From: Schmidtea polychroa
Lineage: Eukaryota
NCBI GenBank assembly: GCA_044892525.1
Contig: CM097886.1
Coordinates: 141,112,001-141,176,000 of the forward strand
Length of the DNA stretch: 64,000 nucleotides
Direction of reading: 5' to 3'
A program made the translations under genes and the position numbers. Every line of letters begins with the position of its first letter. The stretch's first letter is position 1. The notes under the pieces were generated by a model that did no database searches, was not told the origin of the DNA, and worked only from the letters and a program-made list of their open reading frames with translations. Shown here in pieces: positions 17,587 to 50,201 of this stretch.

Positions 17587-17589
17587 AAA

Positions 17590-27344: not shown

Positions 27345-27384
27345 TCATTATGTTTATTTACAATTGGTTTTAATGACCCTTAAT

Positions 27385-30888: not shown

Positions 30889-30973
30889 TCTATAATTATA
30901 TGTACAAATAGTTCTTATCGATACAGGTTCGATATTTTATTTACAATTATTTACATTTTAAGCTAGGTTTGGT

Positions 30974-31494: not shown

Positions 31495-34400
31495 CTATAT
31501 ACGTGAGTTTGGAGGGCGCTGAACGTTCCAGGCCTCCACCCACTGTTCTTGTTTGATATCACTTGGTCGTTTCACTCGATGTTGGAAGTTTCTGATTCGG
31601 GTCATTTCTAGTTCTCCGCGATGTCGTTTATCTTTAATTATTTTTATTGTTCCCCCCGTTATGATTAGGAATGCCCCTGTTATTATTATCCCACTGATCC
31701 ACATCATCTGCTTCACGCTTATACTCTCTGGTTTTTCCTTGTTTGTTAATGTTGATATCGCTTCTGTACTTTTCTCGTTTCCTCTTTTGCCATTTCCTTT
31801 CATCATTTCCCGTATTCTTGCTATTTCCTCGTTCATACCCTCCTTTGCCATCTTTTGTATTTTTTCCATCTCTTCCTCCGAAACATAGTTGTCCTGAGCT
31901 TCCTCACCAGTTTTCTTGTGCTTTCCTCCTTCGTTCTTTTCGTCGTGGTTTTTTCTTTTCTTTCCTCTTTTCCCCGGGTATCGTCGGCATTCTCTTTTTG
32001 ATTCGTTTCTCCAGATACAAACCGTATATTCCTTCGGGGGCTGCTGCTGCGTCACATATTGATGGCATCTCTCACCCGGTCCTAATCTTGAAATACAGAC
32101 TTTGTGCTCTTTTCTTGGTTGGAGCTGCGTTATTGCTACTTCGCCACCTTTTCCTAGGTGTACCTCTTTTCCTTTAACGTTCGTTATTCTTTTCCCGTCT
32201 CGGTTTCGGTATGCTTCTTGTATTCTTACTTCTGTTATTGGTTCTGTGTCCTCATTTATTAGTACTAGTTTCTGATACGCTCTAGACATACATCTTCCTA
32301 GTATGCACCTTTCCTTTAAGTCCCATTCTTCCTTTAAGTCCCACTGCTGCTCTTGTGCTTGCTTTTTCTTTTCTTGTTTTAGTTCGTCCTCTTTGCTATC
32401 TTGATTCTCCGCTTCTTTGGTTTCTTTTATCGTCCTCGTCCCTCCATGAGCTGTTACTAACTCTATCATGGTAAGCATAATTATCATTAATATCATATTT
32501 GTCTCTATTTCTTTGTTAGTGAAAGGTAGGCATACCCTCTGTTTTCCATTATTCGGTTTTTCCTCCTCTTTGGTCTTAGTTCCCGGGCTGTTTCCCTCTC
32601 TTTTCGTATCCGAATCCTTGTTTTCCGGTTTACCCTCCTCCTGTTCTCTTTTCTCTTTATCCTCCTTTCGGCCTTTTCCGTTATTGTCATCGTGTTTATC
32701 TCCCCCGCTGTCGTTTAAAATGTCGTCCTCGACATTTATATCGTTCAATAATCTGCGATATGCTGTTAGCACTCTGTTTCTTGCTAATTTTGCTTCGAAT
32801 TCAAACTCTTTTCTACCCGTTGCAGCATGTCTCTTTCTATTCCATTCTTTAACTAACTCTCTCAATTGCATACGACGATGTTTCCCAATTCGTTGTTGCT
32901 CGTTCTGATTTTGCGTGAATTTTAGGTCTTCTCTATTTAATACTATTAAAATTATTTTAGGTGTCCCCCCTTTAGTTAGGGTATTCTTTACCATCGCATT
33001 TTCTCCGTTTTCGTAGAATTCGTTTACATTTATCGCATATTTATTATTTTGTGGTACTCTCCAGGTTAATAATAATTTCATTGCTTCTAGATTTTTCCGT
33101 ACCGTATTCCATTGAAACTGAGATGTGTTTTTGCACATATTTTCAACTTCTTCTTTTGTCGCATTTTTGCAAATAAATCTGATCATTTCTAAGTTTGGCT
33201 GTATGGTTGCCCAGTCCAAGGTGGAATTTCCTTCATTGGACTTTTCGTCTAGTTTCGATCCTGATTGATGTAGGATGTGGAGTGTTTTTGGGTGTATTTT
33301 CGTTATAGCTGCATACATCATGGCGGTTTCACCTTGTTCATTTTTCGTGTTGGTTTCCTCGCCCATCTCTCCAAGGATTCTCACGATCGTTATTGCTCTA
33401 TTTTCTTTCGCCGCTAGTATTGCTTGTTGTAGGGGTGTTCTGGAATCCTTCGTTACCATCGTAAATGCTCGAGGCAAGAAGGTTTTGATTTTCCCGATAT
33501 CTAAATCCGTGGTTTGATCTCTTGCGTATGTGTGTACGGTTTTTATTATTTTGGACAATATTATTTCGTCTGGCAGCTCTAGCATTTCCTCAAAGAACAC
33601 TTCTTTTGCTTTGCGTATTATTGCCTCTTGATCTATACTCATTGATTTGGTTTCGATGACGTTGTTTGTGACCGTTTGGTTCGTTGTTGACTTTGATTCC
33701 CTGGATTTCTCATACCTTATTTTCGTTTTCTTTCCGTTTGGATTATTGATTCGTTCCTCTGCTGTAAGTATTTGGATAATATTCAGGTAATTCTCGCGGA
33801 TGTTATTCATTGTGTCCATCATATATAACACACTTACCGTTTCCCAATATTTATTTCGTACTTGGTTAGTAAATTGGAATAGGGATTTTTCGAATGTGTC
33901 GATTCGCTTTTTTGCTAACTGTTCGTCTTTATGATTTGTGAATTTTATCCCTCGTTCTAGTAATTGATTCGGGATTTCGAATAACTGATGTCCTTTCATA
34001 GCTTCTCTCATCAGCGTGTTCTCTCCTCTCGTGAACGCTTCGTTTACGTTGATCATATAATCGTTTCGAATTGGATTTCTCCATGTGATTAATATTCCGG
34101 TAATTGTCGTCAGTTTTTCTTTGATCGCTGTTAACAATCCATCATACATGTTTCCGACTTCCCGATTGTCCTCATATGATAGTAGTTCCATCAATGACGT
34201 GAACGCCTCGGTACTTCTCCCTTCGATAGCATGGTGTAGAGCGTTTTTCCGCTCGTGGTCTTGTGTAGTTATTTTCGATCCGGTATCGAGTAACGCGGTT
34301 ATAATGTCTTTTGTTTTACCTCTGTTTGCGGCTATCATTAATGGTGTGTAACCTTGGTTGTTTGTTTGTTCTGTTGATCGCTTGCAGTCGTGAAATGCTT

Positions 34401-37400
34401 CTATTGTTTCTAGTATTTGCTCGTTGTTACCTACTTTCATGAGTTTGTGTAATGGTGTGTCTCCGTAATGATCTGTTATTGTAAATAATATTGGCCATTG
34501 GCTTTTGACTACTCGCAATAATGGGTGTGTCCTTTCTCTATTTGCATAGTTCTCGATCATCGTCAATAATCCTCCTAATATTTCGAAATCTAATCGATCT
34601 TTTGCCCATCCAGGTATTTTAATTTTTACCTCCTTTACAATCTTTTCCGCTTCTGATGGTTGGATACCTAATCGTCCAGTGATCGGTTCTGCGAGTTGCT
34701 GCATCATGTTCATTCGGTAGGTTTGCGAACGTGTGGTTAATGTACGGCCTTCTGGTTGACTAGTGGCTGTTTTTGGAATTGATTTGCATCGTGCCACGTT
34801 TACGTATATTGGTCTGGTAAAGGGGTTATTTACCAATTTCACTCTTACATTAGTTTCGCCTACGAATAAGATCTCATATGGTCCTTTTCCGTTGCGTTGT
34901 AACTTTTTTGTGGTTCCTGGAATTAATTCCGGGGTTTCTATCATTACCCAATCACCTGTTTGGAACGTATGTTGCTTCACGTTTTTCTTTCGATCGTGTA
35001 AATCTTTATAACTTTCCTGGTAGAACTTGATATTTAATCCCGCAGTTTCCCAAATTTCTTGCATTCTTTCCTTGAATTTCGTAACATAATCATCGATCTC
35101 CATATACTGCGATATCGGTGGTTGGTATTCCAGGTCCATTGGCATATTACATTCTCTTCCGTACATTAATTTGAATGGGCTCATTTTCGTTGATGCGTGA
35201 ATCGACATTCTGTACGCCATAAGACATAGGTTTATATATTCGTCCCAATCTCGTTGGTGACGGTCAACGTAGTTTGATAACATTTGTATAAGTGTTCCAT
35301 TAAATCTTTCCGTCATCCCATTGGTTTGAGGGTGGTATGGAGATGTTCTTAGTTTTGCTATTTTGAAGTAATTTGTTACTTCGCTCATTATCTCACTCAT
35401 AAAATTTGTTCCCTGATCGGTTAAGATTTGTTTTGGTGTTCCATATCGGCAACATATCTCTTCTACCAAAATTTTTGCGATTGTTTTAGCTTTTTGGTCT
35501 GGCATCGCGAATGCTTCTGGGAATTTCGTAAGAAAGTCTGTGATCACCAGAATGTAAACGTTTCCTTTATCTGACTCTGGTAGTGGACCAACTACGTCCA
35601 TGGATATCATTGTCATTGGTTCTATTGGTACTGGCATTGGCGTTAAAGGTGCTTTCCATTTCGATCCCGTATTCTTCCTGGTTGCACAAGTTAGACAATT
35701 TTTTACCCATTCGGTTACATCTTCCGTTAACGTAGGCCAAAAATATTTCTGTTTCATTCTTGCTAACGTCTTTTTCGATGACATATGTCCTCCCAATCTC
35801 CCATCGTGATATTGCGTTAGTAACTCTTTTCGTCGGTTTTCCGGTATACACATTAATCGTTTTTCCCCATCCATTATCAGCAACCAATCTTTCTCTATAA
35901 TATATCGGTGTCGGTGTTTATCCATATGTTCTTTTAATTTTTGGTCTTTCGCATATACATCTGTCTTTCCGGTTTTTACATAATCGATAATTTGTTTTAA
36001 TTCCGCGTCCTCTTGTTGGTCCTTTCGTAATTGACAGAAATCCAAATCTTCCGCTACTATTAAGCATATGCGTTGCATTTCTGAATCCACCAAATCTGGG
36101 AAAATAAATCTTGACATACAATCGGCGTTGGCATTTGCTCTTCCCGCTTTGAATTTTATAAATGGGGAGTATTCTTGCAATTGCATGGCCCATCGCATCA
36201 GTCTACTGGACGCTTCTTTATGTTGCCCTAACCACACTAATGGTTGATGATCCGTGGTTATGCATATCTCATGTCCCCATAGTAAATATCGGAAGTGTTT
36301 GATAGCTTGTATTATAGCCAATGCTTCTCGTTCTGTTACCGAATAGTTCTTTTCGTGCTTTTTGAATGTTCGACTGTAATACCCGATTACTCTCTCTTTT
36401 CCCTCATCGTCTAATTGTCCCAGAATCGCGCCTGCCGCGTACCCGCTTGCATCCGTTGCCAATAGAAATGGCTTCTTAAAATCTGGGTGTACGAGGATAG
36501 GTGCTTCGATTAGTTTATCTCTCAGCGTTTCGAACGCCTGTTGTTGTTCTTTTTCCCAAATGAACGAAATATCCTTCTTTACTAATTCCTGGATTGGTTT
36601 TGCAATTCCTGCATAATTTTTGATAAATTTGCGATAGTATCCGCATAATCCTAGAAATTCCTGAACTTGGGTGACAGTTTTCGGTGCTGGACATGTTTTT
36701 ATTTTCTCAATGTTTCTTGGATCTGGCTCCTTTCCTTTAGCTGACACTATGTGTCCTAAAAACGTGACTTTTTCCTTTGCCCAATCGCATTTTGATGGTT
36801 TGAGTTTGAGTTTCCACTGTCTTAATCTAATAAATACGTTTCGGATATCTTCTAGATGTTGTTCAAATGTCGCTGAATAGATTAGTAAATCATCAATATA
36901 TACCATACATTGTTTGATTCCATGGGTGACAAAGTTCATACACCGTTGAAATGATGCTGGTGCGTTAGTCAGTCCAAATGGCATTTTCCTGAATTGATAT
37001 AGATCTCGTCCCAACGTGAAAGCTGTTTTCTCTTTGTCCTCATCTTTGACTTTAATCTGCCAGTATCCACTTTTTAGATCTAAAGAAGTAAAATATGCTG
37101 CCCCTTGCAACATCAATAACATCTCATTGATGTCCGGCAATGGATAGGTATCTCTCTTGGTCACTGCGTTTAACTTCCGATAATCGATACAGAATCGTTG
37201 GGTGCCATCTTTCTTTTTTACCATGACCACTGGGAATTGCCAAGGTGAGCAACTTGGTTCGATTACTTTTGCGTCTAGCATCTTTTGTACTTCTGTTTCG
37301 GCTATTTCTTTCTGCATTTCTGCTAGCTTGTATGGTCTCAATGCAATTGGGGTTTCGTCTATGAGTGGTATTGCATGTAAGGTAACATCACATGTACCCA

Positions 37401-40400
37401 AGTCTAAATCTGAGATGGCGAATATATCTTTATATTCTACCAACAATCGGTGCAATTTTTTCTTTTCGTCATTCGTCAACAACATACTATCTATTGTCCA
37501 TAATTCATCATCTTTGATCATCTCGTTGGTCACTTTCGGTAATTCTATGTCCATCATTGGGGTCAATCTTCCCAATTTTTCGTTCTCATAAATGATTTTG
37601 TCTTCCTCTTCGAAATTCGTGATGTTGAGCGGTATCACTCCTTCTTGGTTTATTGTGATTATTTCTCTCGCGAGTGGTAATTCTCGTCGCTTTTCGAATG
37701 ACTTGCTTGGTTCAAAGATAACTTCTCCTTCCATACCCGTATCCACTTTTATCTGACAAATCATCTGCGATTTTGCTGGTACTATTATTTTTTCTGGACA
37801 TCTGATGACTGCATTCATTTTGCATATTCTACCGGTTTTGTCTTTTAAACACATGGTTGTTAAGTCAATTACGACTTCCTTTAACAATTCTGGCATCAAA
37901 TCCGTTCCGATTATGCATGGTACGCTAAGTTTTGGTATTACTGCCAAATACGTTTCAATTTCGTTGTCCTGGTATCTCAATGTAGTCCACCATCTTCCGA
38001 CCACGTCCACTGTTTCTTTACTACATGCTATAATGTGAATTGTTGTTGATTCGATATCCTTCCAGTGTTTACTGGGGATTTGATTAATCGCTATCGCTGA
38101 TACATTAGCTCCGGTGTCTATCATAGCATTGGTTTCTTTACCATTGATTTGAATCATAACTGTTACTGCTGGACCTCCAGGTAAACTCATCGCTGCTATT
38201 GTTCTTACGTCATCTGCTTGATCTACACTTTTGGTACGTCGTGTTGGCATATAATGCATACCGGGTTGACTCGGTAATTGCGGATACATATTTTGTGTCA
38301 TGGTCAAAGCTGTTTGTGGTCCCACGATATCCGGTGGTATATAGCTTCCATTGGCGATCCAGGTGTTTGTCTTTTCCTTTTCCCAATATGGTGCCGTTTC
38401 CATTGGTTTTTCGTTTGGGTTTCTGTTTGGATAAAGACATTTATCGTTCCCGTTATCATCGTCGTCACTATCGCTGTTAGATGATTGGCTTCTAAATCGG
38501 TCCAAGAATTTTGGCTTATTCTTTTTCAATTGTCGTCTTGTCGCTTCATCGTACATTACTTTCCGGAATCGTCTGCCTACTTCCTCGTCGGTTCCTTTAA
38601 TCTTTGTTAATATTTTAATCAATCGCTTTATCCGATGAATGTCTTTTGAGTGGCCATGTAATACCATGGTCTTAGCTAAAAATGGTAAGAAGCCTACTAT
38701 CATTTTCCAATTAACTTTCTTTTCCCGCTTGTATATATCGAAACAAGCTAACATTTGTGTTAGTATTACTCTGACTATCTGAATTATGAGTATGATCCCT
38801 AATATCCCGGCCATCATTTGTCCAAAAACTAAGAATCTTCCCCACATTGCTTTCATCATGTTTGACGTAGCTTGTTGAAAATGGTCTGGCGATAATAGCA
38901 GCTCGTAATTCGGGCCTGATTGATAGTTTGTGCCCCCAGTTATTGTTACCATATTAGACAAAATGGATTCTCGTCTGGCTGGAAAGAGTACGTTAAGTCG
39001 TGCTGTTTCTAGATCTTCCGGGGAATACATACCACCGTTTGACACGTCTATAGGTTTGAAATCCAGCTCTGTGGCGAGTTCTATTAATCCAAATTTCTTG
39101 GGCTCCTCGGATATGGTTTTTCCCGGTAACATCATCCATTTCCCATCGGGCCTTTCATATAAAGGTCCGTATGCATTAGAACAGTTAAAGAGATTTGGGT
39201 AGAAACCCACTGGATTCATAATTCTAGTGACTGGTTGGACGAATCGATTTTGTCCTTTATAACGGATTTCTAATTCATTTGCACATCTCTTTTCGGGTAG
39301 TATGGATTTTTCTGGCATTCGTGCATACGTCTTGGTACACTGGTATGTGTACATCACTTCTCCTACCATTCTACCAAAGTGTCCATCTGGTAATGGGAGT
39401 GATGGCATCGTGTTATCTGGGTGCGTTATCGCAATAGCTAGCTTTGTTTTCAATATTTCTTTATTCAATGAACAATCGTTTTGTATCAGATCGTAATATA
39501 CTTTTTGCAAGGTCGTTTGTCCACGATGAAATAGAAAATCCATTTTATTATTTGCATATAAGTATAGTTTTACGTCCTCCGTTGCTATCTTTCCCACTGC
39601 TCTATCGATTATTTGTCTCGACATATAGATGCCTGCGTAATTGGTTTTATATACTATACTGTCACATTTGGTGGTTTCTTTCTCTTTGATAAACCTCATA
39701 CCTAGATCTGGATCGTCTGTGATTAATGCTGTTGGTGTCTTCTGCGTTGAAAGTCTCTTTTCTCTGGGAGATGGTGGCATTGGTTTTCCATTTCGCATCC
39801 TCACTCTGTCGTTTCCATCCTCGTCGTTCTCGTTCTCATATATTTCTCCTTTTACTTCATTGAACAAAGCACTTTTTAACAGTTGGAGTCGGCATTTTTG
39901 GGTATTAGCTTCATAGATTATAGTTGATACTCCTGTCCTACATACGTTTTCTGTAGCTCTACACGCTGGGTTGGTCTTCATTTGGTAATTATTTGCGTCA
40001 AATTGCGCTTCGTATTCTTTTAATTCGACCGTGTAAGACTCGATCACTACAACTCCCGATATTACCTCGCCTCGGATCGTATACGTACCTCCGTTACATG
40101 ACCCATCTGATGATTTTACTTTTCCGGATACGTAAACACTTTCGGTTTTAATCATTCCAGTTTGTCCGTGAATTGTCACTCCGTTATGCATTTTTAGCGC
40201 TCCGGTTCTAAATAGCTCTTTACAATCCTCTCGTTGTATTGATACGATTTCTTTATCCAGACCGGGTAGTATAAGAGTCGAATACGAATATTGTCCACAG
40301 TAATATGCGAGTACCTTTTTTGATACTACGCATTCCCTTGCTTGCGTTCTGATGAAATCTGATTCTTGATATACATGGTAAGTAACTTTTGTTCTCACGA

Positions 40401-43400
40401 TGTCCAATTTGTTGGGTGAGGCTTGTCTGCATTCTTCTATGTCTCTCAATGAGTATTTATCTCTCATTATCATGTTATCACAATCGTAGATGGTGAAACC
40501 TGTTGCTCCACTTGTGCACAACATCCATATCATCATAGTCATCATTAACGAATTTATTGATGCTTTTCTGCTTGCGGGATCTTTCATCGGTAGTTCCCAT
40601 TCTAGTTCATTTAACAATTTTTTCAATCTAACTTGCATCGACCTTTCTTGCTCATTTTTCCGTGGCGCTTGTATCAGTCTTTTCCATCCTCCTGCACGAA
40701 TAATGTGTGGTTCAATAGTATTCTCTATGATTGAAACGGTCATTTCTACATGATTTGCAAACTGTTTATTTGGTATTTTCCTCGCAGCTAGTCCCATCAA
40801 ATTATACATCAAATAAGTGATTACCACTAGGTGATGCTCGTCATCATTTGCATTTGTCGTGAGCTGCTCAATCACTCTCTTTGTTTCGTCCCAATCCGTT
40901 TTGGTGGTTTTCGTTTTCTCTTTGATTAACTTTGGGATTATCCCCGAAATGGTGTGCCATAATTGTCTAGCTTCCGTACTGGCTACTTTCCGTTGCCACA
41001 AACGTCTAAGTTGTGGGTTTGTTATTATTAACATATCTTTTAACAATTCTCGTATCCATTTTTCTCCTCTTTCGATCGTTGGTTGGGCTTCCTTTAGATC
41101 CCATACTATTTTATCCAATTTTTCTAATCGAACTTGCCCTTGTTCTTGCTTTAATTGTTCTTTGGTTTTGAACTCAGACTTTTCTCCTTGTTTCTTGGGT
41201 CTTCCTTTTGCCCGTTTTTCCATCATCGTTCCTGCTTCTCTGGTATTTTCGTAATTCGGATTTCTTTCGTTATCCGTTCTGGGTAATGAGCTATCGTTAT
41301 TTCTTAGCCACTCATTCCATTCGTCTATTATTTTGTCGGTTTGACTTTCTGGTGTTACTTTCGTTGGTTCTCTTTGCTTCTGGAATTGTTCATCCGTTTC
41401 GGTTTCCGTAGTATTGTCGATGATTTCTTTGATGTTTAGTTTCGTGGGTTGTTGATAACTCGTTGATGGCTGGTTGTTAGTCCACATTTCGGCTCCTGTC
41501 GGCCATCTTACTAATAGCGGTGATCTTTCTCCTGATTCATCGTCACTATCTTCCAGGATTATCTCTTCAACTTCTTCAGTTTCATTAGATTTACTTGGTG
41601 CTTTGTTCGGACTTGGAGTACTCAAACTGCCTTTTGTTGGTTTAATAATTTTACTTTTCCTTTTTAACGGTTTTCCCAACGTTTCTGCCATTGTTAATAC
41701 ATTTGTCTCTTCCAATCTCATGGGTGTTATCCCGACGTCTGCATTATCGTCTAGTGATTTTCCGAACAGTTGCAGATGGAATGGAGTTTCATATGCTAAT
41801 TTCTTTTTTAATTCTCTAATTTTTGTTGTTGGATGCACCTCTAGTTCCTCGATGCTCTTGTCCGGATACTTGATTCGGATGTGATACCTCTCCTGGGTGT
41901 CTTGTGCCCATTCCTGATTTCTCCATTTTCGAATAATTTGTTCTAGCTGTTCTGGATACCATTCATTATATTGCCGGTATTCCTCTATTGCCTTTGCCAT
42001 TCCTCTCAGATTGTGGATATTCTCTGATGTCTTTAAGATGATGTTAGCCAACGCTACTACTTGGCGTTTTTGATTTTTCGCTCCCATTGCTAAGATATCG
42101 CCTAATTGTTTATACCTTTCTGTCTCTTCTCGTTCTCTTGCTTCCGTCGCTTCCTCGCCGTCCATATCAGCATATTCCCGTTCCTTTTTCCTCATTGCAT
42201 GAATATGTCTCGCTTCATTTTCGCTTTCTGATGTGACATCCGTCTCGCTTTCGTCATCTGATGTCTGTCCCCTTGCTTCCTCTTCATATTCTGGGGGTTC
42301 CTCTTCTTCTTCCTCCGATTCACTTTCTGTCTCACCGATGTCTGTTTCTACGAAGGTTCCTTTCCGGATTTCCCATTCCTTACTTTCTGCATTCCACACT
42401 CTTTCCCATGGGGTTCGTCTGCAAGATCTGGTATTTAATTTCGTGATTTTTCCTTGTAGCTCTTTTTCTTTTAACCATTGTTGGTGGATTTCAATTATTT
42501 CTGTAGATTTTCGATATAACGTTTTCATCCGGTCTCGTATTTCTTTTTGATATGTTACATCTCTTGTTCGGAATTCATCCATTGGTACTATCCTGATTAT
42601 CTGATGATTGTCCCACATACCCATTTCGCTTAACGAGGTGTCGTCCTCCGTTCGTAATATTATCTTATCGTACATCATGACTACATCATCCACCATACCA
42701 TCACTACTTTCGCTACGTACCTTTTCCGTTATCTCTTGGTTTATTTTTGATACCAAGTCATCCACTGTACTCTGATTGCTCATTTTTATTCGTCGTTTTT
42801 CTTCGTTCGGTAACCATATGGTTATTTCTAACCTCTGTGGCTGGGTTTCTTTTAACCTTCCATATTTGTGGATCAAATTTATGGTTCTCCAATCACTCAT
42901 TCGGAGCATTTCTGTATCTCGCAACCGGCTCATTAGTTCGTACATGGCTGGGGCTCGTCTGGTGATGAGTAAATCCCAGTTGTCTTCTACTTGTTCTTGA
43001 ATTTGTTTGATCAGCTTATCCAGGTTTCGTCTCAGAGTACATTGTTTTATTTGTTCTAATTTCAATTTGATATTAAAATCATATTCTGCCTTGGCATCTT
43101 TAGCCCAATCGTAAAGGTTGGCTGGTTGTTTTTCTTTATGCAACTTCAGTATTTGCGTTTCTCCTGGCCATATTAGTGCATCTACTAAGTGCATATCTGG
43201 TTTGATCTGTTCTCCTTGGTATTGATACAGATATTCTTTCTTTCTCGACCTTCCCAAATGTTCTCGTATCCAATCGAAAAGTTCGTCGGTGACTGTATTT
43301 TTTATCCACATTCTTTCAAGTCCTCTACTCGTTCCAATTTTTATTACATACCGCGTGGTATCGGCCTGCTTCATTTTTTCCATATAATTTTTTATACTTG

Positions 43401-45348
43401 ATTTCTCCTCGTTTGGTATTAGATCTTTCTCGTTTCTTTCCAATTTCATCACTTTTTGCACGAATCGCCTGAATGGTATTACGTCGATGAACTCTTGGTT
43501 CCTCACTACTACTGGGAGTATTTCGGCTACCTGTTTTATCGCTTCCTCCCTTGCTTTTCTCAACTTTATTTCGATATCTTCGTCTTCACTTTCACTGGTT
43601 ATCTCGTTTCCGCTTTCTTCCTCTTTGATTTCCCCTTTTGGGGGTTCGCTTATTTCATTCGGCTGTAGTATTTCTCCACCCAAACTACTTACATAATCTT
43701 CTTCTTCGTCTGACGATGCTACATCTTTTGTCCTTTTCATCATATTGATTTGCAAGTTTCTCATCCTTGGTACTTTCTTTAGTTTCTTTCTTTCGAATAT
43801 TGTTGTTTCTTCTGGTTCTGATTCTTGTAGCATTTGGTGGTTTAGTTGACTGGTTTGTTCCTTGCTCTTGTTATTTTCATCTTCTGTCTCGGTTTTCGCT
43901 TTATTATGTTCTTTTTCGATTTTATCCTTCATCTTTTTCCAGAATATTTTCTGAATTCTCTGGTTTCCTTTTAAAATCGTGGTTGAATTCTCTGTTTTCA
44001 TTTCCGTTGTTATTTCTTTTACCTTTTCTGGTTCAGTCATGGGTACTACCCTTGGGCTTTTCCCGTAATTGTAGCAATACTGGCTCTTCATGTCTTTTAC
44101 TAACCTCATCATATTTATTCGCAATGGTTGTTCTTGTCGTTGTTGGTTGCGTTCTTGTTTTATCCTCTCTTCCTCGGCCTGTAGCCTTTGCCCTTCTTGT
44201 ACATGTTGATGCACTTCATAATTGTTGAGATTTTCGGTACTCCTCATCATACGTATATTCTGGGTTTGTTGTGGTGCTGATTCTTGTCTTGGTCTCATCA
44301 TTTGCTGCATCATCTGTTTCATCTGCGAAATTTCCTGCATAACGTTCATTTGTTTTCCTTCGTTAGGGTTACTTTGTCGTTGCGGATTCGCTATATAATT
44401 ATTATTTCGCTGTGGTGGTCGTTGTTGTTGGCCCCTTTCTCGGCAATCTCTGGAGATGTGACCTGGCTGACCACAGTTAAAACAGCCTCGCAATTGGCAT
44501 ACATTTTCGGTATGTCCACGCCGTCCGCAACGATTACAATTTGAATTTCTATAACAATCTCTGTCCCAGTGTCCTGGTTTACCGCATGTTCGGCACTGCT
44601 TGTTATCGTTCATATTTCGCCGATTATTGAAATTGTTCTCATTATTCGGGTTGTTACGATTACCATTATTCCCGTTTGATCGTCCTTGTGGTGGTTTGAA
44701 AATTTGGTGCGCTCCTGGTATAAATTGATTCATTTTCGGTTCTTGATTGTTGTTATCTCCGTTATCCGCTTTCGCTATTGCTGTCGCTATCCTTCCCTCC
44801 TCTTGCATAATATTCATTTGAGCTGGAAGGTGGAGCTCGCATCTCGTAGCCCAATCTATGGCTTCCTCTAATGTTTTGCACATTTGACAACCTACTGAGG
44901 CTCTTACTTCTTCTCGGCGTAATCCCTCTATGAAATAACCAATCAGATTTTCTTCGGGTAATTTTCCATTCATTGCTTTCTTCGCTAATCTCCGCAATTC
45001 ACTGGCATATAATGTTATCGATTCGTTTGCTCTTTGTTTCCTATTTGCTAGTTCGCCCAACGCCTGGTTGATTGGCTTACTGGCTCCGAAGGTTTTCTTC
45101 AGGAATGTTTTAATATCTTCCCACTTTTCTAATTTCGTGTCTCTCTCTTTAGCTTCTAAATATACCTCTAATGCACTATCGCACAAAAACAACGGCATCC
45201 TTTTACTAATTGCTTCGGGTGTCCATCCACACACAGTGATATAAACTTCAAAATTAGTTATGAACGTTGCTAGCTTGTTTGCATTTCCGTTGAACGGTTC
45301 TCCTCTGAACTTCTCTTTATACTCGTCGGTTTTTACGACATTCGTCAT
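31495..45348 (-). CDS. 4617-aa Gag-Env-Pol-ankyrin polyprotein
   Basis: Single ORF containing Gag CA and three CCHC knuckles, UBL-like and Bcl-2-like segments, a glycoprotein, protease (IDTGA), RT (PFGL, YIDD), RNase H (TDAS, EREA, TDH), integrase (HHCC, DDE, GPY), ankyrin repeats and a TM. Confidence 0.97.
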   Translation of the reverse strand: MTNVVKTDEYKEKFRGEPFNGNANKLATFITNFEVYITVCGWTPEAISKRMPLFLCDSALEVYLEAKERDTKLEKWEDIKTFLKKTFGASKPINQALGELANRKQRANESITLYASELRRLAKKAMNGKLPEENLIGYFIEGLRREEVRASVGCQMCKTLEEAIDWATRCELHLPAQMNIMQEEGRIATAIAKADNGDNNNQEPKMNQFIPGAHQIFKPPQGRSNGNNGNRNNPNNENNFNNRRNMNDNKQCRTCGKPGHWDRDCYRNSNCNRCGRRGHTENVCQLRGCFNCGQPGHISRDCRERGQQQRPPQRNNNYIANPQRQSNPNEGKQMNVMQEISQMKQMMQQMMRPRQESAPQQTQNIRMMRSTENLNNYEVHQHVQEGQRLQAEEERIKQERNQQRQEQPLRINMMRLVKDMKSQYCYNYGKSPRVVPMTEPEKVKEITTEMKTENSTTILKGNQRIQKIFWKKMKDKIEKEHNKAKTETEDENNKSKEQTSQLNHQMLQESEPEETTIFERKKLKKVPRMRNLQINMMKRTKDVASSDEEEDYVSSLGGEILQPNEISEPPKGEIKEEESGNEITSESEDEDIEIKLRKAREEAIKQVAEILPVVVRNQEFIDVIPFRRFVQKVMKLERNEKDLIPNEEKSSIKNYMEKMKQADTTRYVIKIGTSRGLERMWIKNTVTDELFDWIREHLGRSRKKEYLYQYQGEQIKPDMHLVDALIWPGETQILKLHKEKQPANLYDWAKDAKAEYDFNIKLKLEQIKQCTLRRNLDKLIKQIQEQVEDNWDLLITRRAPAMYELMSRLRDTEMLRMSDWRTINLIHKYGRLKETQPQRLEITIWLPNEEKRRIKMSNQSTVDDLVSKINQEITEKVRSESSDGMVDDVVMMYDKIILRTEDDTSLSEMGMWDNHQIIRIVPMDEFRTRDVTYQKEIRDRMKTLYRKSTEIIEIHQQWLKEKELQGKITKLNTRSCRRTPWERVWNAESKEWEIRKGTFVETDIGETESESEEEEEEPPEYEEEARGQTSDDESETDVTSESENEARHIHAMRKKEREYADMDGEEATEAREREETERYKQLGDILAMGAKNQKRQVVALANIILKTSENIHNLRGMAKAIEEYRQYNEWYPEQLEQIIRKWRNQEWAQDTQERYHIRIKYPDKSIEELEVHPTTKIRELKKKLAYETPFHLQLFGKSLDDNADVGITPMRLEETNVLTMAETLGKPLKRKSKIIKPTKGSLSTPSPNKAPSKSNETEEVEEIILEDSDDESGERSPLLVRWPTGAEMWTNNQPSTSYQQPTKLNIKEIIDNTTETETDEQFQKQREPTKVTPESQTDKIIDEWNEWLRNNDSSLPRTDNERNPNYENTREAGTMMEKRAKGRPKKQGEKSEFKTKEQLKQEQGQVRLEKLDKIVWDLKEAQPTIERGEKWIRELLKDMLIITNPQLRRLWQRKVASTEARQLWHTISGIIPKLIKEKTKTTKTDWDETKRVIEQLTTNANDDEHHLVVITYLMYNLMGLAARKIPNKQFANHVEMTVSIIENTIEPHIIRAGGWKRLIQAPRKNEQERSMQVRLKKLLNELEWELPMKDPASRKASINSLMMTMMIWMLCTSGATGFTIYDCDNMIMRDKYSLRDIEECRQASPNKLDIVRTKVTYHVYQESDFIRTQARECVVSKKVLAYYCGQYSYSTLILPGLDKEIVSIQREDCKELFRTGALKMHNGVTIHGQTGMIKTESVYVSGKVKSSDGSCNGGTYTIRGEVISGVVVIESYTVELKEYEAQFDANNYQMKTNPACRATENVCRTGVSTIIYEANTQKCRLQLLKSALFNEVKGEIYENENDEDGNDRVRMRNGKPMPPSPREKRLSTQKTPTALITDDPDLGMRFIKEKETTKCDSIVYKTNYAGIYMSRQIIDRAVGKIATEDVKLYLYANNKMDFLFHRGQTTLQKVYYDLIQNDCSLNKEILKTKLAIAITHPDNTMPSLPLPDGHFGRMVGEVMYTYQCTKTYARMPEKSILPEKRCANELEIRYKGQNRFVQPVTRIMNPVGFYPNLFNCSNAYGPLYERPDGKWMMLPGKTISEEPKKFGLIELATELDFKPIDVSNGGMYSPEDLETARLNVLFPARRESILSNMVTITGGTNYQSGPNYELLLSPDHFQQATSNMMKAMWGRFLVFGQMMAGILGIILIIQIVRVILTQMLACFDIYKREKKVNWKMIVGFLPFLAKTMVLHGHSKDIHRIKRLIKILTKIKGTDEEVGRRFRKVMYDEATRRQLKKNKPKFLDRFRSQSSNSDSDDDDNGNDKCLYPNRNPNEKPMETAPYWEKEKTNTWIANGSYIPPDIVGPQTALTMTQNMYPQLPSQPGMHYMPTRRTKSVDQADDVRTIAAMSLPGGPAVTVMIQINGKETNAMIDTGANVSAIAINQIPSKHWKDIESTTIHIIACSKETVDVVGRWWTTLRYQDNEIETYLAVIPKLSVPCIIGTDLMPELLKEVVIDLTTMCLKDKTGRICKMNAVIRCPEKIIVPAKSQMICQIKVDTGMEGEVIFEPSKSFEKRRELPLAREIITINQEGVIPLNITNFEEEDKIIYENEKLGRLTPMMDIELPKVTNEMIKDDELWTIDSMLLTNDEKKKLHRLLVEYKDIFAISDLDLGTCDVTLHAIPLIDETPIALRPYKLAEMQKEIAETEVQKMLDAKVIEPSCSPWQFPVVMVKKKDGTQRFCIDYRKLNAVTKRDTYPLPDINEMLLMLQGAAYFTSLDLKSGYWQIKVKDEDKEKTAFTLGRDLYQFRKMPFGLTNAPASFQRCMNFVTHGIKQCMVYIDDLLIYSATFEQHLEDIRNVFIRLRQWKLKLKPSKCDWAKEKVTFLGHIVSAKGKEPDPRNIEKIKTCPAPKTVTQVQEFLGLCGYYRKFIKNYAGIAKPIQELVKKDISFIWEKEQQQAFETLRDKLIEAPILVHPDFKKPFLLATDASGYAAGAILGQLDDEGKERVIGYYSRTFKKHEKNYSVTEREALAIIQAIKHFRYLLWGHEICITTDHQPLVWLGQHKEASSRLMRWAMQLQEYSPFIKFKAGRANANADCMSRFIFPDLVDSEMQRICLIVAEDLDFCQLRKDQQEDAELKQIIDYVKTGKTDVYAKDQKLKEHMDKHRHRYIIEKDWLLIMDGEKRLMCIPENRRKELLTQYHDGRLGGHMSSKKTLARMKQKYFWPTLTEDVTEWVKNCLTCATRKNTGSKWKAPLTPMPVPIEPMTMISMDVVGPLPESDKGNVYILVITDFLTKFPEAFAMPDQKAKTIAKILVEEICCRYGTPKQILTDQGTNFMSEIMSEVTNYFKIAKLRTSPYHPQTNGMTERFNGTLIQMLSNYVDRHQRDWDEYINLCLMAYRMSIHASTKMSPFKLMYGRECNMPMDLEYQPPISQYMEIDDYVTKFKERMQEIWETAGLNIKFYQESYKDLHDRKKNVKQHTFQTGDWVMIETPELIPGTTKKLQRNGKGPYEILFVGETNVRVKLVNNPFTRPIYVNVARCKSIPKTATSQPEGRTLTTRSQTYRMNMMQQLAEPITGRLGIQPSEAEKIVKEVKIKIPGWAKDRLDFEILGGLLTMIENYANRERTHPLLRVVKSQWPILFTITDHYGDTPLHKLMKVGNNEQILETIEAFHDCKRSTEQTNNQGYTPLMIAANRGKTKDIITALLDTGSKITTQDHERKNALHHAIEGRSTEAFTSLMELLSYEDNREVGNMYDGLLTAIKEKLTTITGILITWRNPIRNDYMINVNEAFTRGENTLMREAMKGHQLFEIPNQLLERGIKFTNHKDEQLAKKRIDTFEKSLFQFTNQVRNKYWETVSVLYMMDTMNNIRENYLNIIQILTAEERINNPNGKKTKIRYEKSRESKSTTNQTVTNNVIETKSMSIDQEAIIRKAKEVFFEEMLELPDEIILSKIIKTVHTYARDQTTDLDIGKIKTFLPRAFTMVTKDSRTPLQQAILAAKENRAITIVRILGEMGEETNTKNEQGETAMMYAAITKIHPKTLHILHQSGSKLDEKSNEGNSTLDWATIQPNLEMIRFICKNATKEEVENMCKNTSQFQWNTVRKNLEAMKLLLTWRVPQNNKYAINVNEFYENGENAMVKNTLTKGGTPKIILIVLNREDLKFTQNQNEQQRIGKHRRMQLRELVKEWNRKRHAATGRKEFEFEAKLARNRVLTAYRRLLNDINVEDDILNDSGGDKHDDNNGKGRKEDKEKREQEEGKPENKDSDTKREGNSPGTKTKEEEKPNNGKQRVCLPFTNKEIETNMILMIIMLTMIELVTAHGGTRTIKETKEAENQDSKEDELKQEKKKQAQEQQWDLKEEWDLKERCILGRCMSRAYQKLVLINEDTEPITEVRIQEAYRNRDGKRITNVKGKEVHLGKGGEVAITQLQPRKEHKVCISRLGPGERCHQYVTQQQPPKEYTVCIWRNESKRECRRYPGKRGKKRKNHDEKNEGGKHKKTGEEAQDNYVSEEEMEKIQKMAKEGMNEEIARIREMMKGNGKRGNEKSTEAISTLTNKEKPESISVKQMMWISGIIITGAFLIITGGTIKIIKDKRHRGELEMTRIRNFQHRVKRPSDIKQEQWVEAWNVQRPPNSRI
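33165..34480 (-). other. Ankyrin-repeat region of the polyprotein (two clusters)
   Basis: GDTPLHK, GYTPLMIAA, KNALHHAI; RTPLQQAI, GETAMMYAA, GNSTLDWAT. Confidence 0.85.
34810..38160 (-). other. pol: Pol region: aspartic protease, RT, RNase H, integrase
   Basis: DTG at about 38115, YIDD at about 36895, TDASG at about 36450, H-H-C-C zinc finger at about 35690-35810, D-D-E core and GPY at about 34880. Gypsy domain order. Confidence 0.97.
38640..40560 (-). other. env: Envelope glycoprotein domain (chuvirus/gB-like, class III fusogen type)
   Basis: Signal-like LMMTMMIWMLCTSGATG followed by FTIYDC, YSLRDIEEC, ECVVSKKVLAYYCG, DCKELF, DGSCNGGTY, and C-terminal FGQMMAGILGIILIIQIVRVIL. The Cys spacing resembles chuvirus-like glycoproteins known from invertebrate retroelements. 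Confidence 0.8.
44443..45310 (-). other. gag: Gag capsid-like domain and three CCHC zinc knuckles
   Basis: LFLCDSALEVY...RKQRANESITLYASELRRLA...YFIEGL; CRTCGKPGHWDRDC, CNRCGRRGHTENVC, CFNCGQPGHISRDC. Confidence 0.95.
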
Positions 45349-46659
45349 GATTGGTGTTCTAGGTTCGTCTGTTTCTTTTAAATTGTCTAACGATGTGATT
45401 AAACTTTGGGCTGATAATTCCTCGGTTGACGTTGCTAAACTATTAGTGATATCGGACAGACTTTCTCTACTTCGAGATCGACTAGGGGTATATCCGAGAT
45501 TTTCTTGGTCGAATATGGGTACTTGATTGGTTCTTCTGGATCCTTGTGATATTCCTCTTTGATGTTTAATGGATCGTCCTCTTTTGAGTTGTTGTAATTC
45601 GTCTCCTGAAAATTATACGTCTCCGGGCTTACTAGAAGATCTAAGATTGGGTTTATCCGTGATTCCTTTCTTACGCTTCTTGGTAATTAGCGGCTATTGA
45701 ATTGGACGCGTTCGGTTCTGATTGTGTTTCCTTCGATAAATATTCTGTATGAATCTGCTACTGAGATCCTGAGGAGATTTACTAATCCTTGGCAGATGGC
45801 TGCTAATACTTCTTCCGTTCTGGAGTCTTCCGGTTGCTGTGTCTCTCGGTGCGGGTTCTGAATGGATTTATCCTTGGTTGATTGTCGATTTTCTTCGAAT
45901 TCCTTTTGTGCAGGTTCTGGATTGTCTTGGTTGGCTGGATTGGCTTGATATCTAAAATGAAAAAATGATCTCGTGTTGCATTTGCTTACACGACTTCATC
46001 ATTCTTTCTACAACATTCAAAAACAGACACCTTTTAGGTTTCTGTTTGTGCTTCCCCTATCTTTTGTGAAATCCTTTCTGCGGGTTATAATATCCCATCA
46101 GCCCGTATTTTCCGTCGATTTTAAATTATCTATATGGGGTAGTAACAATTATCTATAAAGTCGTAATAATTATCTATTCGTTATCAATTATAGTAAAAAT
46201 AGGTCGTTGTCGGTCTCTGCTTATTACCCCCCTTCGTTTTCTTATTCCTTTGCGCTGTTGTCGCTGTTTTACTTTTCGTATTTACTATTATCCCACTCGG
46301 TACTACTCTGGAACCGATAAACATACATTTTCCCGGTTTACCCAAAAAAAAATTCCGTAGAGTTTCTCTACTTCACTGGGATCCCTTTAATTAGTTAGTT
46401 ACTTTCCTCTTTACTCATTATCATTGTTTCATCTATTCTTTATTTTCTATTATCTCTTTAATTCGTTTCCTTCTTCCCTTTCCTTTTTCCTTATAATCTT
46501 ATTTTCTTTTCCACGAGCTCGTTTATTTCCTCTCTAAACTCGAATTTTCAAAATTACATTCAATTTGTTCTAGCTAGCTTTAATATTCCATATCACTAGT
46601 AATTTAAATATTATCTCATTGTAGCTTAACTGCTATCTCTCGCTTTTCTAGGCCTTTAC

Positions 46660-47470
46660 GACTGGCTGGCAGCTCAATCTTCTTCTCAGCTCAATCTTCT
46701 TCCTTCTGATCGGTTAGACTATTCAACAACTCGATCTTACGACTGGCTGGCACTATTCAACAGCTCAATCTTCTTCCTTCTGATCGGTTGGACTATTCAA
46801 CAACTCGATCTTACGACTGGCTGGCACTATTCAACAGCTCAATCTTCTTCCTTCTGATCGGTTGGACTATTCGACAACTCGATCTTACGACTGGCTGGCA
46901 CTATTCAACAGCTCAATCTTCTTCCTTCTGATCGGTTGGACTATTCAACAACTCGATCTTACGACTGGCTGGCACTATTCAACAGCTCAATCTTCTTCCT
47001 TCTGATCGGTTGGACTATTCAACAACTCGATCTTACGACTGGCTGGCACTATTCAACAGCTCAATCTTCTTCCTTCTGATCGGTTGGACTATTCAACAAC
47101 TCGATCTTACGACTGGCTGGCACTATTCAACAGCTCAATCTTCCTCCTTCCTGATCGGTTGGACTTTTCACAACTCGACCTTACGACTGGCTGGCACTAT
47201 TCAACAGCTCAATCTTCCTCTTTCCTGATCGGTTGGACTTTTCACAACTCGACCTTACGACTGGCTGGCACTATTCAACAGCTCAATCTTCCTCCTTCCT
47301 GATCGGTTGGACTTTTCACAACTCGACCTTACGACTGGCTGGCACTATTCAACAGCTCAATCTTCCTCCTTCCTGATCGGTTGGACTTTTCACCACTCGA
47401 CCTTACGACTGGCTGGCACTATTCAACAGCTCAGTCTTCCTCCTTGACCGGCTGGATTATTCGACAGCTC
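46660..47470. repeat. 74-bp tandem array (about 10 copies plus partials) in the element leader
   Basis: gactggctgg recurs at 46741, 46815, 46889, 46963, 47037, 47111, 47185, 47259, 47333 and 47407. Confidence 0.97.
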
Positions 47471-48050
47471 GGCTTCAATATTCCTTGCTCTGCATGCTTC
47501 TATTTCTCTTTTCTTCTTTTACTCTAGTTTACCATTTTCTCTGTCTACTTTTAATTTGTCGACTTAATCTTTACCGCTTGGGAGTGTTTCCCCTTTTCCC
47601 CCCTTGCTCAAAACGCACGACGATCGCGATGATCCATTTCTACATTGGCATGGTGATCAGTCATGTCGCAAAAACTTCTCATCATATGCGATGGTACCCC
47701 GCCCTACGCTTCTTACTTGGGTTGATCAGTTATCCCCTCCCAACGGGTTCTTGCAATAAGACGTACCGCCCGAAGGTGGCTCGGTTTGTACCCCTGCAGT
47801 CTATATTGGGACTAATTCCACGTTATTCCACCCTCTCTTCATTTGATTCCAAAAAAAAAATAAAACAAAACAAACACGCAAATATTCATTCGTCATGCAA
47901 ATTTTATTAGTCCTAATCATCAAAACTTTTTAAAGACGAATTTATTTATCATAAACATAAAGATTGAATCATTAACAGTACGTGTTACCTCAACAATTTC
48001 ATGCATTCTTGTTCAAACATCGTATACTTGCTGTTACATCGCCGGCCGTT

Positions 48051-48536
48051 TCATTCGCCATAATAGACCATATGGGTCTCTTTTATTTCATATTTGCACA
48101 TCGTGCATCTTTTTAGGTCTTTTACACACTCTTCACAGTGACTGAGGTGTCCACACGGCAAGAATAATACGCGAATAGGACGGAGTTTGCAGGCTATACA
48201 AGTTCGTAATTGGTTAACTTTTTCCTGTATTTTTTGTTCGATTGCATCTGGTATTGTATTTAGTGAGTCTTTTAGACGCTGATAATCTAGATTTAATGTT
48301 GGGTGGTTCAATCTCTCTTGATACCACTGATATACGGTTTCGGGGTTTATTTTTCCATCTGGGCGACTTAGGCCTGTGGCTAATATCATATGATTAGGTA
48401 CGACTGGTGTTTGTCCGATTGCTTGCAGTAATATCGCGTTGATTTTTTCTCTTTTATGCGTCAGTGTTGTTAGGGAGTCGTTTTCTATATCGATAAACTT
48501 GAGCAGTTGTTGCATTTGGTTCGCGAATTCTGTCAT
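48051..48536 (-). CDS. IAP/MDM2-type C-terminal RING finger protein without BIR (161 aa), upstream of gag
   Basis: CIACKLRPIRVLFLPCGHLSHCEECVKDLKRCTMCKYEIKETHMVY at the extreme C-terminus, matching the IAP RING pattern (C..C....v.F.PCGH..C..C...l..CP.Cr..I). Confidence 0.85.
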   Translation of the reverse strand: MTEFANQMQQLLKFIDIENDSLTTLTHKREKINAILLQAIGQTPVVPNHMILATGLSRPDGKINPETVYQWYQERLNHPTLNLDYQRLKDSLNTIPDAIEQKIQEKVNQLRTCIACKLRPIRVLFLPCGHLSHCEECVKDLKRCTMCKYEIKETHMVYYGE

Positions 48537-48853
48537 AGCTGTTGGAAAAGTAATGTTTTAATAATATGTAGTAAATTAATAGTTAATTCGTTAATTGGTT
48601 TCTTTAACCATTGTTAATTATTTAATTTGACTACTTTATCTCCTTTATTTATATATATCCTTAATTTTCCTATTATCTATATTTTGATTTTCTCTACTTA
48701 GTTCCTAATGTAATTTAATAATCAATAGTCACTTTGCATTCGTCAAGCAATGGTCGGTTGAAAATAGAAAATCGATGTGATAAATCCCTTTAATTTTGTA
48801 TGAAACTCCCGGTGAATTTCGCATTCGTTAATAGAAATTTCGATCGACTGTAG

Positions 48854-48871
48854 ATCCCGGCTGAGCCCCCA
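48854..48871 (-). promoter_or_regulatory. Primer-binding site, tRNA-Pro type
   Basis: Minus strand TGGGGGCTCAGCCGGGAT versus the canonical tRNA-Pro PBS TGGGGGCTCGTCCGGGAT (16/18), 7 nt inside the 5' LTR boundary. Confidence 0.8.
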
Positions 48872-49412
48872 AAAATCATGTTGGGGTTACACCTCGGCTG
48901 ACCACTCTACCATGTTGACGGGTCTAAGGGTTGATTGTCCATCTCGAATAAAAGGTGCCACCGATTTGTCAACCTGGAGTGAAACCCCACATAACTTTCT
49001 TCCAACATAGTGCCCGTGAATCACTTCACGTTGGTACTGCACTATGCAGGCGAGACGCCAGCAAGCAGGTGAGCTTCTGCCTTAAAACTACTCCTTGCTG
49101 AGGCCTCGACTTCCCGTTCACGACTGCCGATAGAAGGGCTTACGTCCATTTCCTTACACAACCACTTATCAGGACTCGCTGAATGCAAAGTGGGAATTTC
49201 TCACTAGATCTTGCGGGTTCTCTACTCAACCCACTTAATTAAAGTCTAATTATTCATGAACGAAGACGTGTAAGACAACAAGATTTATTAATTTCAATGT
49301 TATGACACAAGGATTCAGCTGTACACTTTACTAACGTTTGTCGAAAGAAGAGAAAACATCATAATCAACATAGATCGGATCCTTGTTCCTCATCCTGACC
49401 GCCACTGGGATT

Positions 49413-50201
49413 TTATTGTTTCTCCCATTCAGTGTCGGCGAATAATTCGTCGAGGTTAAAAAACTCGGAAGCGTTCTCTTCCCACATTACGCCAGCGGCT
49501 GATATGATTCGTGCCGAGGGTCCCGTTGTTAGGTCGATGGACACGTGAGAGTTGCCACCGTTGGTTGAGTCCTCTATTGATGGGATGTTTGGCTTTGCAG
49601 TAGCGCGCTCGCGCTGTCTCTTCTTGCGCTCTGCACGAGAGAGTTGTTTGCGCTTGGGTTTGCTTGAAGATGCCACTTGCAGAAGGGTGACTGATACAGA
49701 TGGACTAGCAGTGGGGGGCTTACTGGTACCCGTGATGACAACATCTGGTCGCTTGGGGGACAATTCGGTTTCGACGCAGTCTCGGCACGGTCTCTTGAAC
49801 GGTGGAGTTGGATTCGAGGAACGGTTGTGATGAGGCGGAAAGATGTCATCGGCCTCTCGGATGGGAATTTGCACTATTTTCCGGTTTGTAGCCGCCTGCA
49901 CGTAAACCTTATGCAGTGCCTCGGATTGTTCTCTGATTAGACTTCTTTGGGCACGGCTCTCAGATATTAGCGCGTCCCGGCAATGCTCGCTACGATCGAG
50001 CTTCTTTTGGATCTCTTTCATCCGAGCGGGACTAAACCATGTCCCTTCCAGCTCGTCTATCTTCCTCTTGTAACGTCCAATCTGAGTTTGTAGGTCCTTT
50101 ATCACCGTATTTTTATCCGCGCACGAGAAGCACGGCCGTAATGCTGATTTAGTGGTTGGTAGCATGCTTGCTATAAATAATACTAATGAAATGTAGAACA
50201 T
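49413..50201 (-). CDS. LTR-encoded 262-aa protein of unknown function
   Basis: Hydrophobic N-terminus, CFSC and CRDC pairs, coiled coil, basic KPKRK...RKKRQRER stretch and acidic-aromatic C-terminus. A diverged homolog at 5744-6257 supports coding function. Confidence 0.75.
   Translation of the reverse strand: MFYISLVLFIASMLPTTKSALRPCFSCADKNTVIKDLQTQIGRYKRKIDELEGTWFSPARMKEIQKKLDRSEHCRDALISESRAQRSLIREQSEALHKVYVQAATNRKIVQIPIREADDIFPPHHNRSSNPTPPFKRPCRDCVETELSPKRPDVVITGTSKPPTASPSVSVTLLQVASSSKPKRKQLSRAERKKRQRERATAKPNIPSIEDSTNGGNSHVSIDLTTGPSARIISAAGVMWEENASEFFNLDELFADTEWEKQ

Follow-up and report, generated by a model that had tools for sequence, protein, structure and literature searches.

A Burro-type retroelement of Schmidtea polychroa encodes a predicted gB-like envelope glycoprotein in frame between Gag and protease

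Gag, Env, and Pol in a Single Reading Frame

Analysis of a 64,000-nt stretch of the Schmidtea polychroa genome (GenBank assembly GCA_044892525.1, contig CM097886.1, positions 141,112,001 to 141,176,000 of the forward strand; the window, from the first letter of which all coordinates are counted) indicates that its minus strand carries a long terminal repeat (LTR) retroelement of 30,176 nt (22575-52750), whose one long open reading frame (ORF), ORF1, encodes Gag, a predicted envelope glycoprotein (Env) similar to glycoprotein B (gB) of herpesviruses, and Pol, in this order. We interpret the element as a Burro-type member of Ty3/gypsy, in which the parts of the polyprotein are likely to be separated at the endoplasmic reticulum (ER) by host signal peptidase and the protease of the element, and we put the probability of this interpretation at about 62%. 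It builds on what was directly observed, namely, the reading frame, the order of domains, the match of Env to its family, and the conservation of hydrophobic segments.

ORF1 reads from 45612 to 31495 on the minus strand, as do all the element features described below unless stated otherwise, and comprises 4705 codons from stop to stop, or 4617 codons from its first Met at nt 45348. Pfam searches revealed in its product, from the N- to the C-terminus, Gag, a weak ubiquitin-like segment, a weak Bcl-2-like domain, Env, protease, reverse transcriptase (RT), ribonuclease H (RNase H), integrase, and ankyrin repeats. The Gag part (44440..45195) contains a Retrotrans_gag domain (residues 140-233; E = 3.1e-10) and CCHC zinc knuckles (residues ~339-391; zf-CCHC, E = 9.3e-10), three of which could be read off the translated sequence. 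The ubiquitin-like segment (41776..41880) matches ubiquitin at E = 0.015-0.029, below the cut-off, and the ubiquitin match of a relative, P0004, reaches E = 4.4e-5. The Bcl-2-like domain (40684..40902) also matches below the cut-off (E = 0.027), as do its counterparts in relatives (E = 0.0019 in the family designated family 2, 1.1e-4 in P0007, and 9.6e-4 in P0013), and a PDB sequence search with this region gave no match. Downstream of Env, the retroviral aspartic protease (RVP; residues 2485-2576, 37885..38160; E = 2.5e-9) is followed by RT, RNase H, and integrase in the Ty3/gypsy order (35329..37221; RVT_1 at residues 2798-2956, RT_RNaseH at 3044-3148, Integrase_H2C2 at 3256-3314, and rve at 3331-3428) and by ankyrin repeats (33175..34425; Ank_2, E = 2.5e-20). 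These results bear out the first-pass annotation of the window, which had placed Env between Gag and protease in one polyprotein, and its coordinates are correct to within ~30 nt.

A genome search with Env, in which 73 of 2826 candidate copies were scored, showed that these 73 are all ~100% identical over Env and that 46 of them sit in open frames of at least 4700 codons. Eighteen of the 20 copies that were fetched are unbroken from the end of the Bcl-2-like domain through Env to protease, and two fetched copies exhibit 99.1-99.2% identity, without gaps, over all 4705 residues. The abundance of intact copies rules out that the frame is an assembly artefact or a read-through of a broken gene. 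The element is young and present in high copy number in the S. polychroa genome.

Env as a Predicted Class III Fusion Glycoprotein

The Env ectodomain (38845..40497; 551 residues) matches the Pfam family PF24664 (Monjiviricetes_fusion) with E = 1.9e-71, and its homology to glycoproteins, without which the first-pass annotation would have considered its reading refuted, is further indicated by its predicted structure. The AlphaFold2 model of residues 1706-2256, calculated for a monomer, has a pLDDT of 90 and a pTM of 0.75. Its best match in PDB is pseudorabies gB (E = 3.1e-13, TM-score 0.46), and every one of the 35 PDB matches listed is a glycoprotein of a herpesvirus, with all except one titled gB; in the comparison with viral structures, the best matches are chuvirus-like glycoproteins (E = 6e-36, TM-score up to 0.71). 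Based on these matches, Env is predicted to be a class III fusogen of chuvirus type, with a gB-like fold and conserved Cys residues, and its assignment as an F-type or baculovirus-like Env was rejected. The ectodomain had been described as Cys-rich, which does not hold, as its Cys density (14 of 551 residues, 2.5%) is similar to that of Pol (25 of 1121, 2.2%); it is rather Cys-conserved, since 13 of the 14 Cys residues are at least 90% conserved in an alignment of 125 sequences. It holds a single N-glycosylation sequon.

In the trees of RT and Env of 11 proteins, the relatives among which are unnamed elements, all three well-supported splits are common to both, and the deeper nodes are unresolved; this fits the co-inheritance of Env and RT over a long time. 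A quick Env tree of 36 rows sets 20 long-flank rows apart from 16 rows of stand-alone size with an SH-aLRT support of 94, which is under the star level. Env could be regarded as cargo that has been kept for a purpose other than viral entry, e.g., in cell-surface or vesicle signalling, in an element that moves only within cells. Particles or infection are unreported in the literature covered, and the element carries many host-modulating cargo domains, both of which would suit such a role, but the ectodomain is of full length with its 13 conserved Cys residues, its gB-like model is confident, and it co-diverges with RT. We therefore find this explanation very improbable.

Predicted Internal Signal Peptide and Membrane Topology

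The internal signal-like peptide (40498..40587) lies just downstream of the Bcl-2-like domain and has a hydrophobic core at residues 1689-1699 (nt 40548-40516) and a predicted cleavage site between residues 1705 and 1706. The conservation of this segment was assessed in a set of 22 proteins, composed of the window protein and 21 relatives picked for their long upstream sequence. Of the 22 proteins, 21 have an 11-residue stretch of hydropathy of at least 2.0 that lies 6-36 residues ahead of the first conserved Cys of Env, compared with a background of 54 in 1150 tiles. Small residues at positions -1 and -3 of one fixed cut position were found in 20 of 21 proteins (P0143 left out), the background for any of six positions being 2170 of 4744, and a positive n-region is present in 17 of the 21. 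Across relatives of 26-40% Env identity, both this segment and the (-3,-1) site are kept. Thus, an internal signal of n/h/c structure with a (-3,-1) site is conserved and may be predicted to function as such, which agrees with the first-pass proposal that signal peptidase and membrane topology take part in separating the products, although the cleavage itself is a prediction.

Sequence further upstream of the signal varies widely among families. A Met within 30 residues upstream of the signal occurs in just 9 of the 21 proteins, so there is no conserved internal start. Such a core is present within the first 40 residues of 68 of the 92 homologues of stand-alone size, and the internal segment thus looks like the own leader of the glycoprotein, retained inside a polyprotein.

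Alternatively, the segment might act as a weak or uncleaved signal-anchor, with some chains uncut or bypassing it, which would result in covalent Gag-Env-Pol or in two topologies; the parts would then be separated by the element protease alone, and the efficiency of the signal would set the Env:Pol ratio. Bcl-2 domains usually have a C-terminal tail anchor, and the segment follows the Bcl-2-like domain in several families. In the window copy the core is short and Met-rich, with a mean hydropathy of 2.05 over 11 residues and 1.15 over 19. Moreover, in foamy viruses, Env retains a stable leader of type II (PMC7828637), and ectodomains of the gB type have been described to lie either between a signal peptide and a transmembrane segment or between two transmembrane segments (PMC13524379). 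The stronger cores of the relatives (2.15-3.68) and the (-3,-1) site, which 20 of 21 proteins have at the same position, argue in the opposite direction and make a signal-anchor quite unlikely.

Downstream of the ectodomain, the predicted Env transmembrane segment (residues 2266-2284, 38761..38817; hydropathy 2.53), conserved in six of six aligned proteins, is the strongest hydrophobic segment of the whole ORF1 protein. It is followed by a weakly hydrophobic segment (residues 2300-2318, 38659..38715; hydropathy 1.31, two charged residues), which we read as a putative membrane-lying helix.

A Second Predicted Membrane Protein at the End of ORF1

The signal and the Env transmembrane segment were found where the first-pass annotation had claimed them; a second pair, at the end of the frame, had been missed. 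The relevant part of ORF1 (31636..32496) may encode a second type I membrane protein, composed of a signal-like segment (residues 4373-4391), an outer domain of ~250 residues, a transmembrane segment (residues 4641-4659), and a 46-residue tail. A signal-like segment, 220-390 residues, and a transmembrane segment end all nine polyproteins that extend past integrase (those of the window, P0002-P0006, P0008, P0009, and P0021; P0023, which stops within integrase, was left out). Each of these nine has the pattern of four segments in two signal-plus-transmembrane pairs, and the predicted two-segment topology of the C-terminal protein is well supported.

The outer domains of this protein diverge fast among relatives. 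Over 2715 residues, the tails contain 15 occurrences of an FN3-like motif, vs. 21 in 29,004 residues elsewhere. In a leave-one-out test with a tail profile, the units of which were picked by this motif, which favours matching, five relatives score (0-1 of 300 shuffles as good), but four tails (P0005, P0008, P0021, and P0001) do not. The tail of the window copy has one FN3-like motif and does not score, as 269 of 300 shuffles match the profile of relatives equally well. In the case of the family 2 tail, three results may serve as leads only: Atlas matches of 0.83-0.86, with fn3 in nine of the ten rows listed; PDB profile matches, the 17 best of 25 being from FN3-containing proteins by name (E = 0.1-0.7); and a low-confidence model (pLDDT 44) of tandem beta-sandwiches (Z up to 6.7). 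Pfam fn3 was found in none of the nine C-terminal tails, an Atlas search with the tail protein of the window gave no match, and no homologues of the family 2 tail of 205-653 residues were found among 1801 candidates. The FN3 label for the tails of relatives is therefore tentative. A literature search that did not extend to Grohme 2018, Jurka 2007, or Sacco 2022, nor to figures and most supplementary files, revealed no account of the C-terminal membrane protein or of the route of Env processing.

Possible Processing and Assembly of the Polyprotein

The distribution of the predicted segments suggests the following course of events. Gag and the cargo domains would be made in the cytosol, and the internal signal (residues 1689-1705) would send Env into the ER lumen, with a cut after residue 1705. 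The Env transmembrane segment would stop the transfer, allowing protease, RT, RNase H, integrase, and ankyrins to fold in the cytosol, and the second signal and transmembrane segment would give rise to the second type I membrane protein. By severing Gag from Pol during synthesis, the signal-peptidase cut would leave no Gag-Pol fusion. The remnant of the signal would keep Gag attached to the membrane and the tail of Env would do so for Pol, so that both would accumulate on the same face of it until they are freed by the aspartic protease during budding. Tethering of Gag and Pol to the same membrane could thus allow Pol to be packaged although it is not fused to Gag.

Flavivirus and alphavirus polyproteins contain internal signals that are read by signal peptidase, and their envelope proteins and genomes are unrelated to those of the window element. 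The first-pass annotation had compared the element to these viruses, and the comparison applies to the internal signal. It probably does not extend to Pol, because signal peptidase would free only the N-terminus of Env and the element protease would be needed to release Pol from the Env tail.

Splicing is the usual route of gypsy env expression, and it is conceivable that spliced subgenomic RNAs supply Env, a Gag-Pol that skips Env, or both. Splicing would then determine the ratio, as it does in Drosophila errantiviruses, and the full polyprotein would be a minor product. Accessory ORFs located 3' of ORF1 probably need subgenomic RNAs or reinitiation, the window copy has a Met 13 residues ahead of the signal core, and Pol of foamy viruses is made from a spliced RNA (PMC7828637). 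However, both Env junctions are in frame across families of 26-40% Env identity, which pure splicing would not require, and the upstream Met is found in the minority of proteins given above. Additionally, none of the DNA matches that were scored, the best 27 of 966 candidates, has a deletion in the region, a result that is uninformative on Env-less copies. Contigs of three presumed-RNA sequencing runs and one other run were compared with nt 29000-47000; those of run X1 cover 30 of 30 bins, and none of the five joints listed falls within 36300-44700, although X1 may be DNA and contigs cannot show absence, so that this speaks neither for nor against splicing. The 1:1:1 synthesis of Gag, Env, and Pol suggested in the first-pass annotation would depend on splicing. 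On balance, we regard expression through splicing as unlikely.

Several observations weigh against separation of the polyprotein at the ER as outlined above. The signal and transmembrane calls rest on hydropathy windows and the (-3,-1) residue rule in place of SignalP or DeepTMHMM, and the relatives are kin, so that the counts concerning signals and topology are not independent. The signal core of the window copy is the weakest of the 21 (2.05 vs. 2.15-3.68), and P0143 (22% identity) has no signal core. The second hydrophobic segment after the Env transmembrane segment (residues 2300-2318) is conserved, and if it spanned the membrane, Pol would be lumenal. A positive-inside bias is absent around the Env transmembrane segment, with two charges before and three after it in the window copy and more charges after than before in two of seven proteins; support from the positive-inside rule was rejected on these grounds. 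The furin-like site at residues 1950-1953 is not conserved in the five aligned relatives, and a conserved furin site in Env was rejected for this reason. Finally, when 3-mers were counted de novo in search of a protease-site motif that recurs, support was weak, the candidate 3-mer being ranked eighth and seen 4 times vs. 0.41 expected, uncorrected.

Most retroelements package their enzymes by means of a Gag-Pol fusion. Cleavage by signal peptidase between Gag and Env would make such a fusion impossible, and the element would need another route of enzyme packaging. The conserved cut site predicts one exact N-terminus of Env, residue 1706, and the gB-like fusogen may have a partner in the second membrane protein, which is conserved. 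Possibly, though we offer this only as a tentative idea and rather doubt it, these are enveloped retroelements whose single polyprotein gives two surface proteins, one a gB-like fusogen and the other an FN3-like type I protein that evolves fast and acts in attachment or mimics the host, with Pol packaged via the Env tail and Gag anchored to the same membrane by the signal remnant. How such an element assembles becomes a testable question through the conservation of the signal site and of the four-segment topology. Native material for proteomics should be obtainable, since the family is young and abundant and RNA of the related BURRO1 rises on smedwi-2 knock-down in planarians (PMC8532177).

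Relatives and Known Systems

The element ends in LTRs with TG...CA termini, is flanked by a 4-bp target-site duplication, and has gypsy-type Pol domains in the order protease, RT, RNase H, and integrase, all of which are consistent with Ty3/gypsy. We file it with Burro on the basis of its architecture. Like Burro/GYPSM1, it is larger than 30 kb, with LTRs of several kb (3.87 kb here), and encodes in a single ORF1 (~4.7-5.1 thousand residues) a Gag with three CCHC knuckles, ubiquitin-like and BCL2-like regions (candidates here, at the corresponding places with matches below the cut-offs), env in frame between the latter and protease, the typical Pol order, and ankyrins, accompanied by MATH/TRAF cargo (PMC6431247). 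The MATH/TRAF domain is located in a separate ORF downstream of ORF1 in the window element, inside ORF1 in S. mediterranea, and in an upstream ORF in D. tigrina (PMC6431247). Pfam gave no match in the ORFs scanned for the BIR domain of Burro or for its dUTPase-like domain, located between protease and RT, and the published dUTPase call for Burro is based on HHpred.

The gag-env-pol order, the novelty of which the first-pass annotation had implied, is already published. Env in frame between gag and pol was described for planarian Burro in 2019 (PMC6431247), and GAG-ENV-POL elements with gB-type Env were described in 2026 in three phyla, Nematoda, Bryozoa, and Platyhelminthes, with Sacco et al. 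2022 cited for nematodes (PMC13524379). The former, a review, used HHpred to tie Burro env to gypsy Env and also related it to the glycoproteins of mononegaviruses, while our model is gB-like and of predicted class III; its Burro section makes no mention of signal peptides or of a C-terminal membrane protein. The main text of the latter gives the ORF order of the GAG-ENV-POL errantiviruses, and the words 'polyprotein', 'in-frame', 'fused', and 'fibronectin' were not found there. Its LTR filter dropped spacings of more than 14 kb, and the LTRs of the window element start 26.3 kb apart. What we add to this knowledge is modest, namely, the conserved signal site and, at the end of ORF1, the second membrane protein that gives the polyprotein its four-segment topology.

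A precedent that supports our interpretation is Atlas virus of Ancylostoma ceylanicum (Belpaoviridae), in which Gag, Pol, and Env are encoded in a single stop-free polyprotein (PMC9094657). It differs in being a BEL/Pao element with the order Gag-Pol-Env, a class II phlebovirus-like fusogen, and a Gag-Pol link without an intervening lumenal domain (PMC9094657). Glycoproteins of chuviruses and other Monjiviricetes (PF24664) and herpesvirus gB are similar to Env in sequence family and predicted fold, but the chuvirus/Monjiviricetes proteins are mostly stand-alone, of ~650 residues, with an N-terminal signal, and share 20-27% identity with it. Foamy viruses provide an analogy in that Pol is packaged without a Gag-Pol fusion and a long cytosolic leader precedes Env, although their Env and genome are unrelated and their Pol comes from a spliced RNA (PMC7828637).

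A survey of related elements for the same order, as the first-pass annotation had proposed, gave a positive result. In five polyproteins of public assemblies (2627-4057 residues), protease and RT are preceded by the same Env, with 32-40% identity. A library-wide search with Env yielded 1063 matches at E = 0.001, of which 150 were listed; 18 long matches chosen among these and two proteins from the S. polychroa genome were scanned for domains. In 11 of these 20 proteins, Env is followed by protease or RT within a single chain; in the others it is preceded by a zinc knuckle, a Bcl-2 match, immunoglobulin domains, or DUF5641 (one protein each), or Env alone was detected (five proteins). We take the position of DUF5641 before Env to be of the BEL/Pao type. 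The protein with immunoglobulin domains ahead of the PF24664 glycoprotein, P0145 (1000 residues), may be a gene-model fusion. In P0004, the ankyrins are located between Env and protease, whereas they follow integrase in the window element, and the four hydrophobic segments stay although the cargo moves. Two or three aspartic-protease-like domains, between Env and RT or after integrase, were found in P0002, P0003, P0005, P0009-P0012, and P0022.

At least two further families with this Env are present in the S. polychroa genome. One is 17.8 kb long, with LTRs of 1062 nt and a frame of 3334 codons that has the same order, and the other is a 14.5-kb element with a broken frame. The 17.8-kb family (L062, G000:C3:85550888-85560887; L051-L054) has the arrangement Gag-Bcl2-like-Env-Pol-tail without ankyrins, and ~5.4 kb between the end of its ORF and the 3' LTR contain no ORF of 250 codons. 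Of 1346 candidate copies of its tail, 110 were scored.

Other Features of the Element and of the Window

The 5' LTR (48879..52750; 3872 nt) and the 3' LTR (22575..26445) are 99.92% identical, with two mismatches and one gap. Each carries a 264-codon ORF (49413-50207 and 23109-23902, minus strand), which in the 3' LTR is broken into two frames at the single inter-LTR gap. An 18-mer located 7 nt inward of the 5' LTR (48854..48871) resembles what we take to be a tRNA-Pro primer-binding site, and no purine-rich tract is evident upstream of the 3' LTR.

The leader contains an accessory ORF with a C-terminal RING finger (48051..48557; zf-C3HC4_3, E = 3.7e-11) and an array of 74-nt tandem repeats (46613..47500; strand unassigned). 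Downstream of ORF1, an accessory TRAF-like ORF (29500..30936) encodes a RING finger (zf-C3HC4, E = 1.3e-4) followed by a MATH domain (TRAF-mep_MATH, E = 2.4e-27). Contigs of sequencing runs X1 and X2 contain a 1450-nt skip (29979-31430), which would delete most of this ORF and a 128-codon ORF; it is weak, with a short side of 21 nt, and possibly a genomic variant. Three more accessory ORFs of 370, 258, and 222 codons (26676..29364) gave no Pfam match above the cut-off. The last of them (26676-27344, minus strand) seems by eye to encode a third small membrane protein, with hydrophobic stretches at the N-terminus and at one internal site.

Outside the element, positions 1-1806 of the window hold a fragment of another retroelement with a weak Retrotrans_gag match and zinc knuckles, partly repeated ~16 kb downstream at 17069-17934 (86-95%). 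A pair of 254-nt inverted repeats at 59371-60287 is MITE-like, and a fragment of a hAT transposase lies on the minus strand at 62396-63181 (Dimer_Tnp_hAT, E = 1.2e-11).

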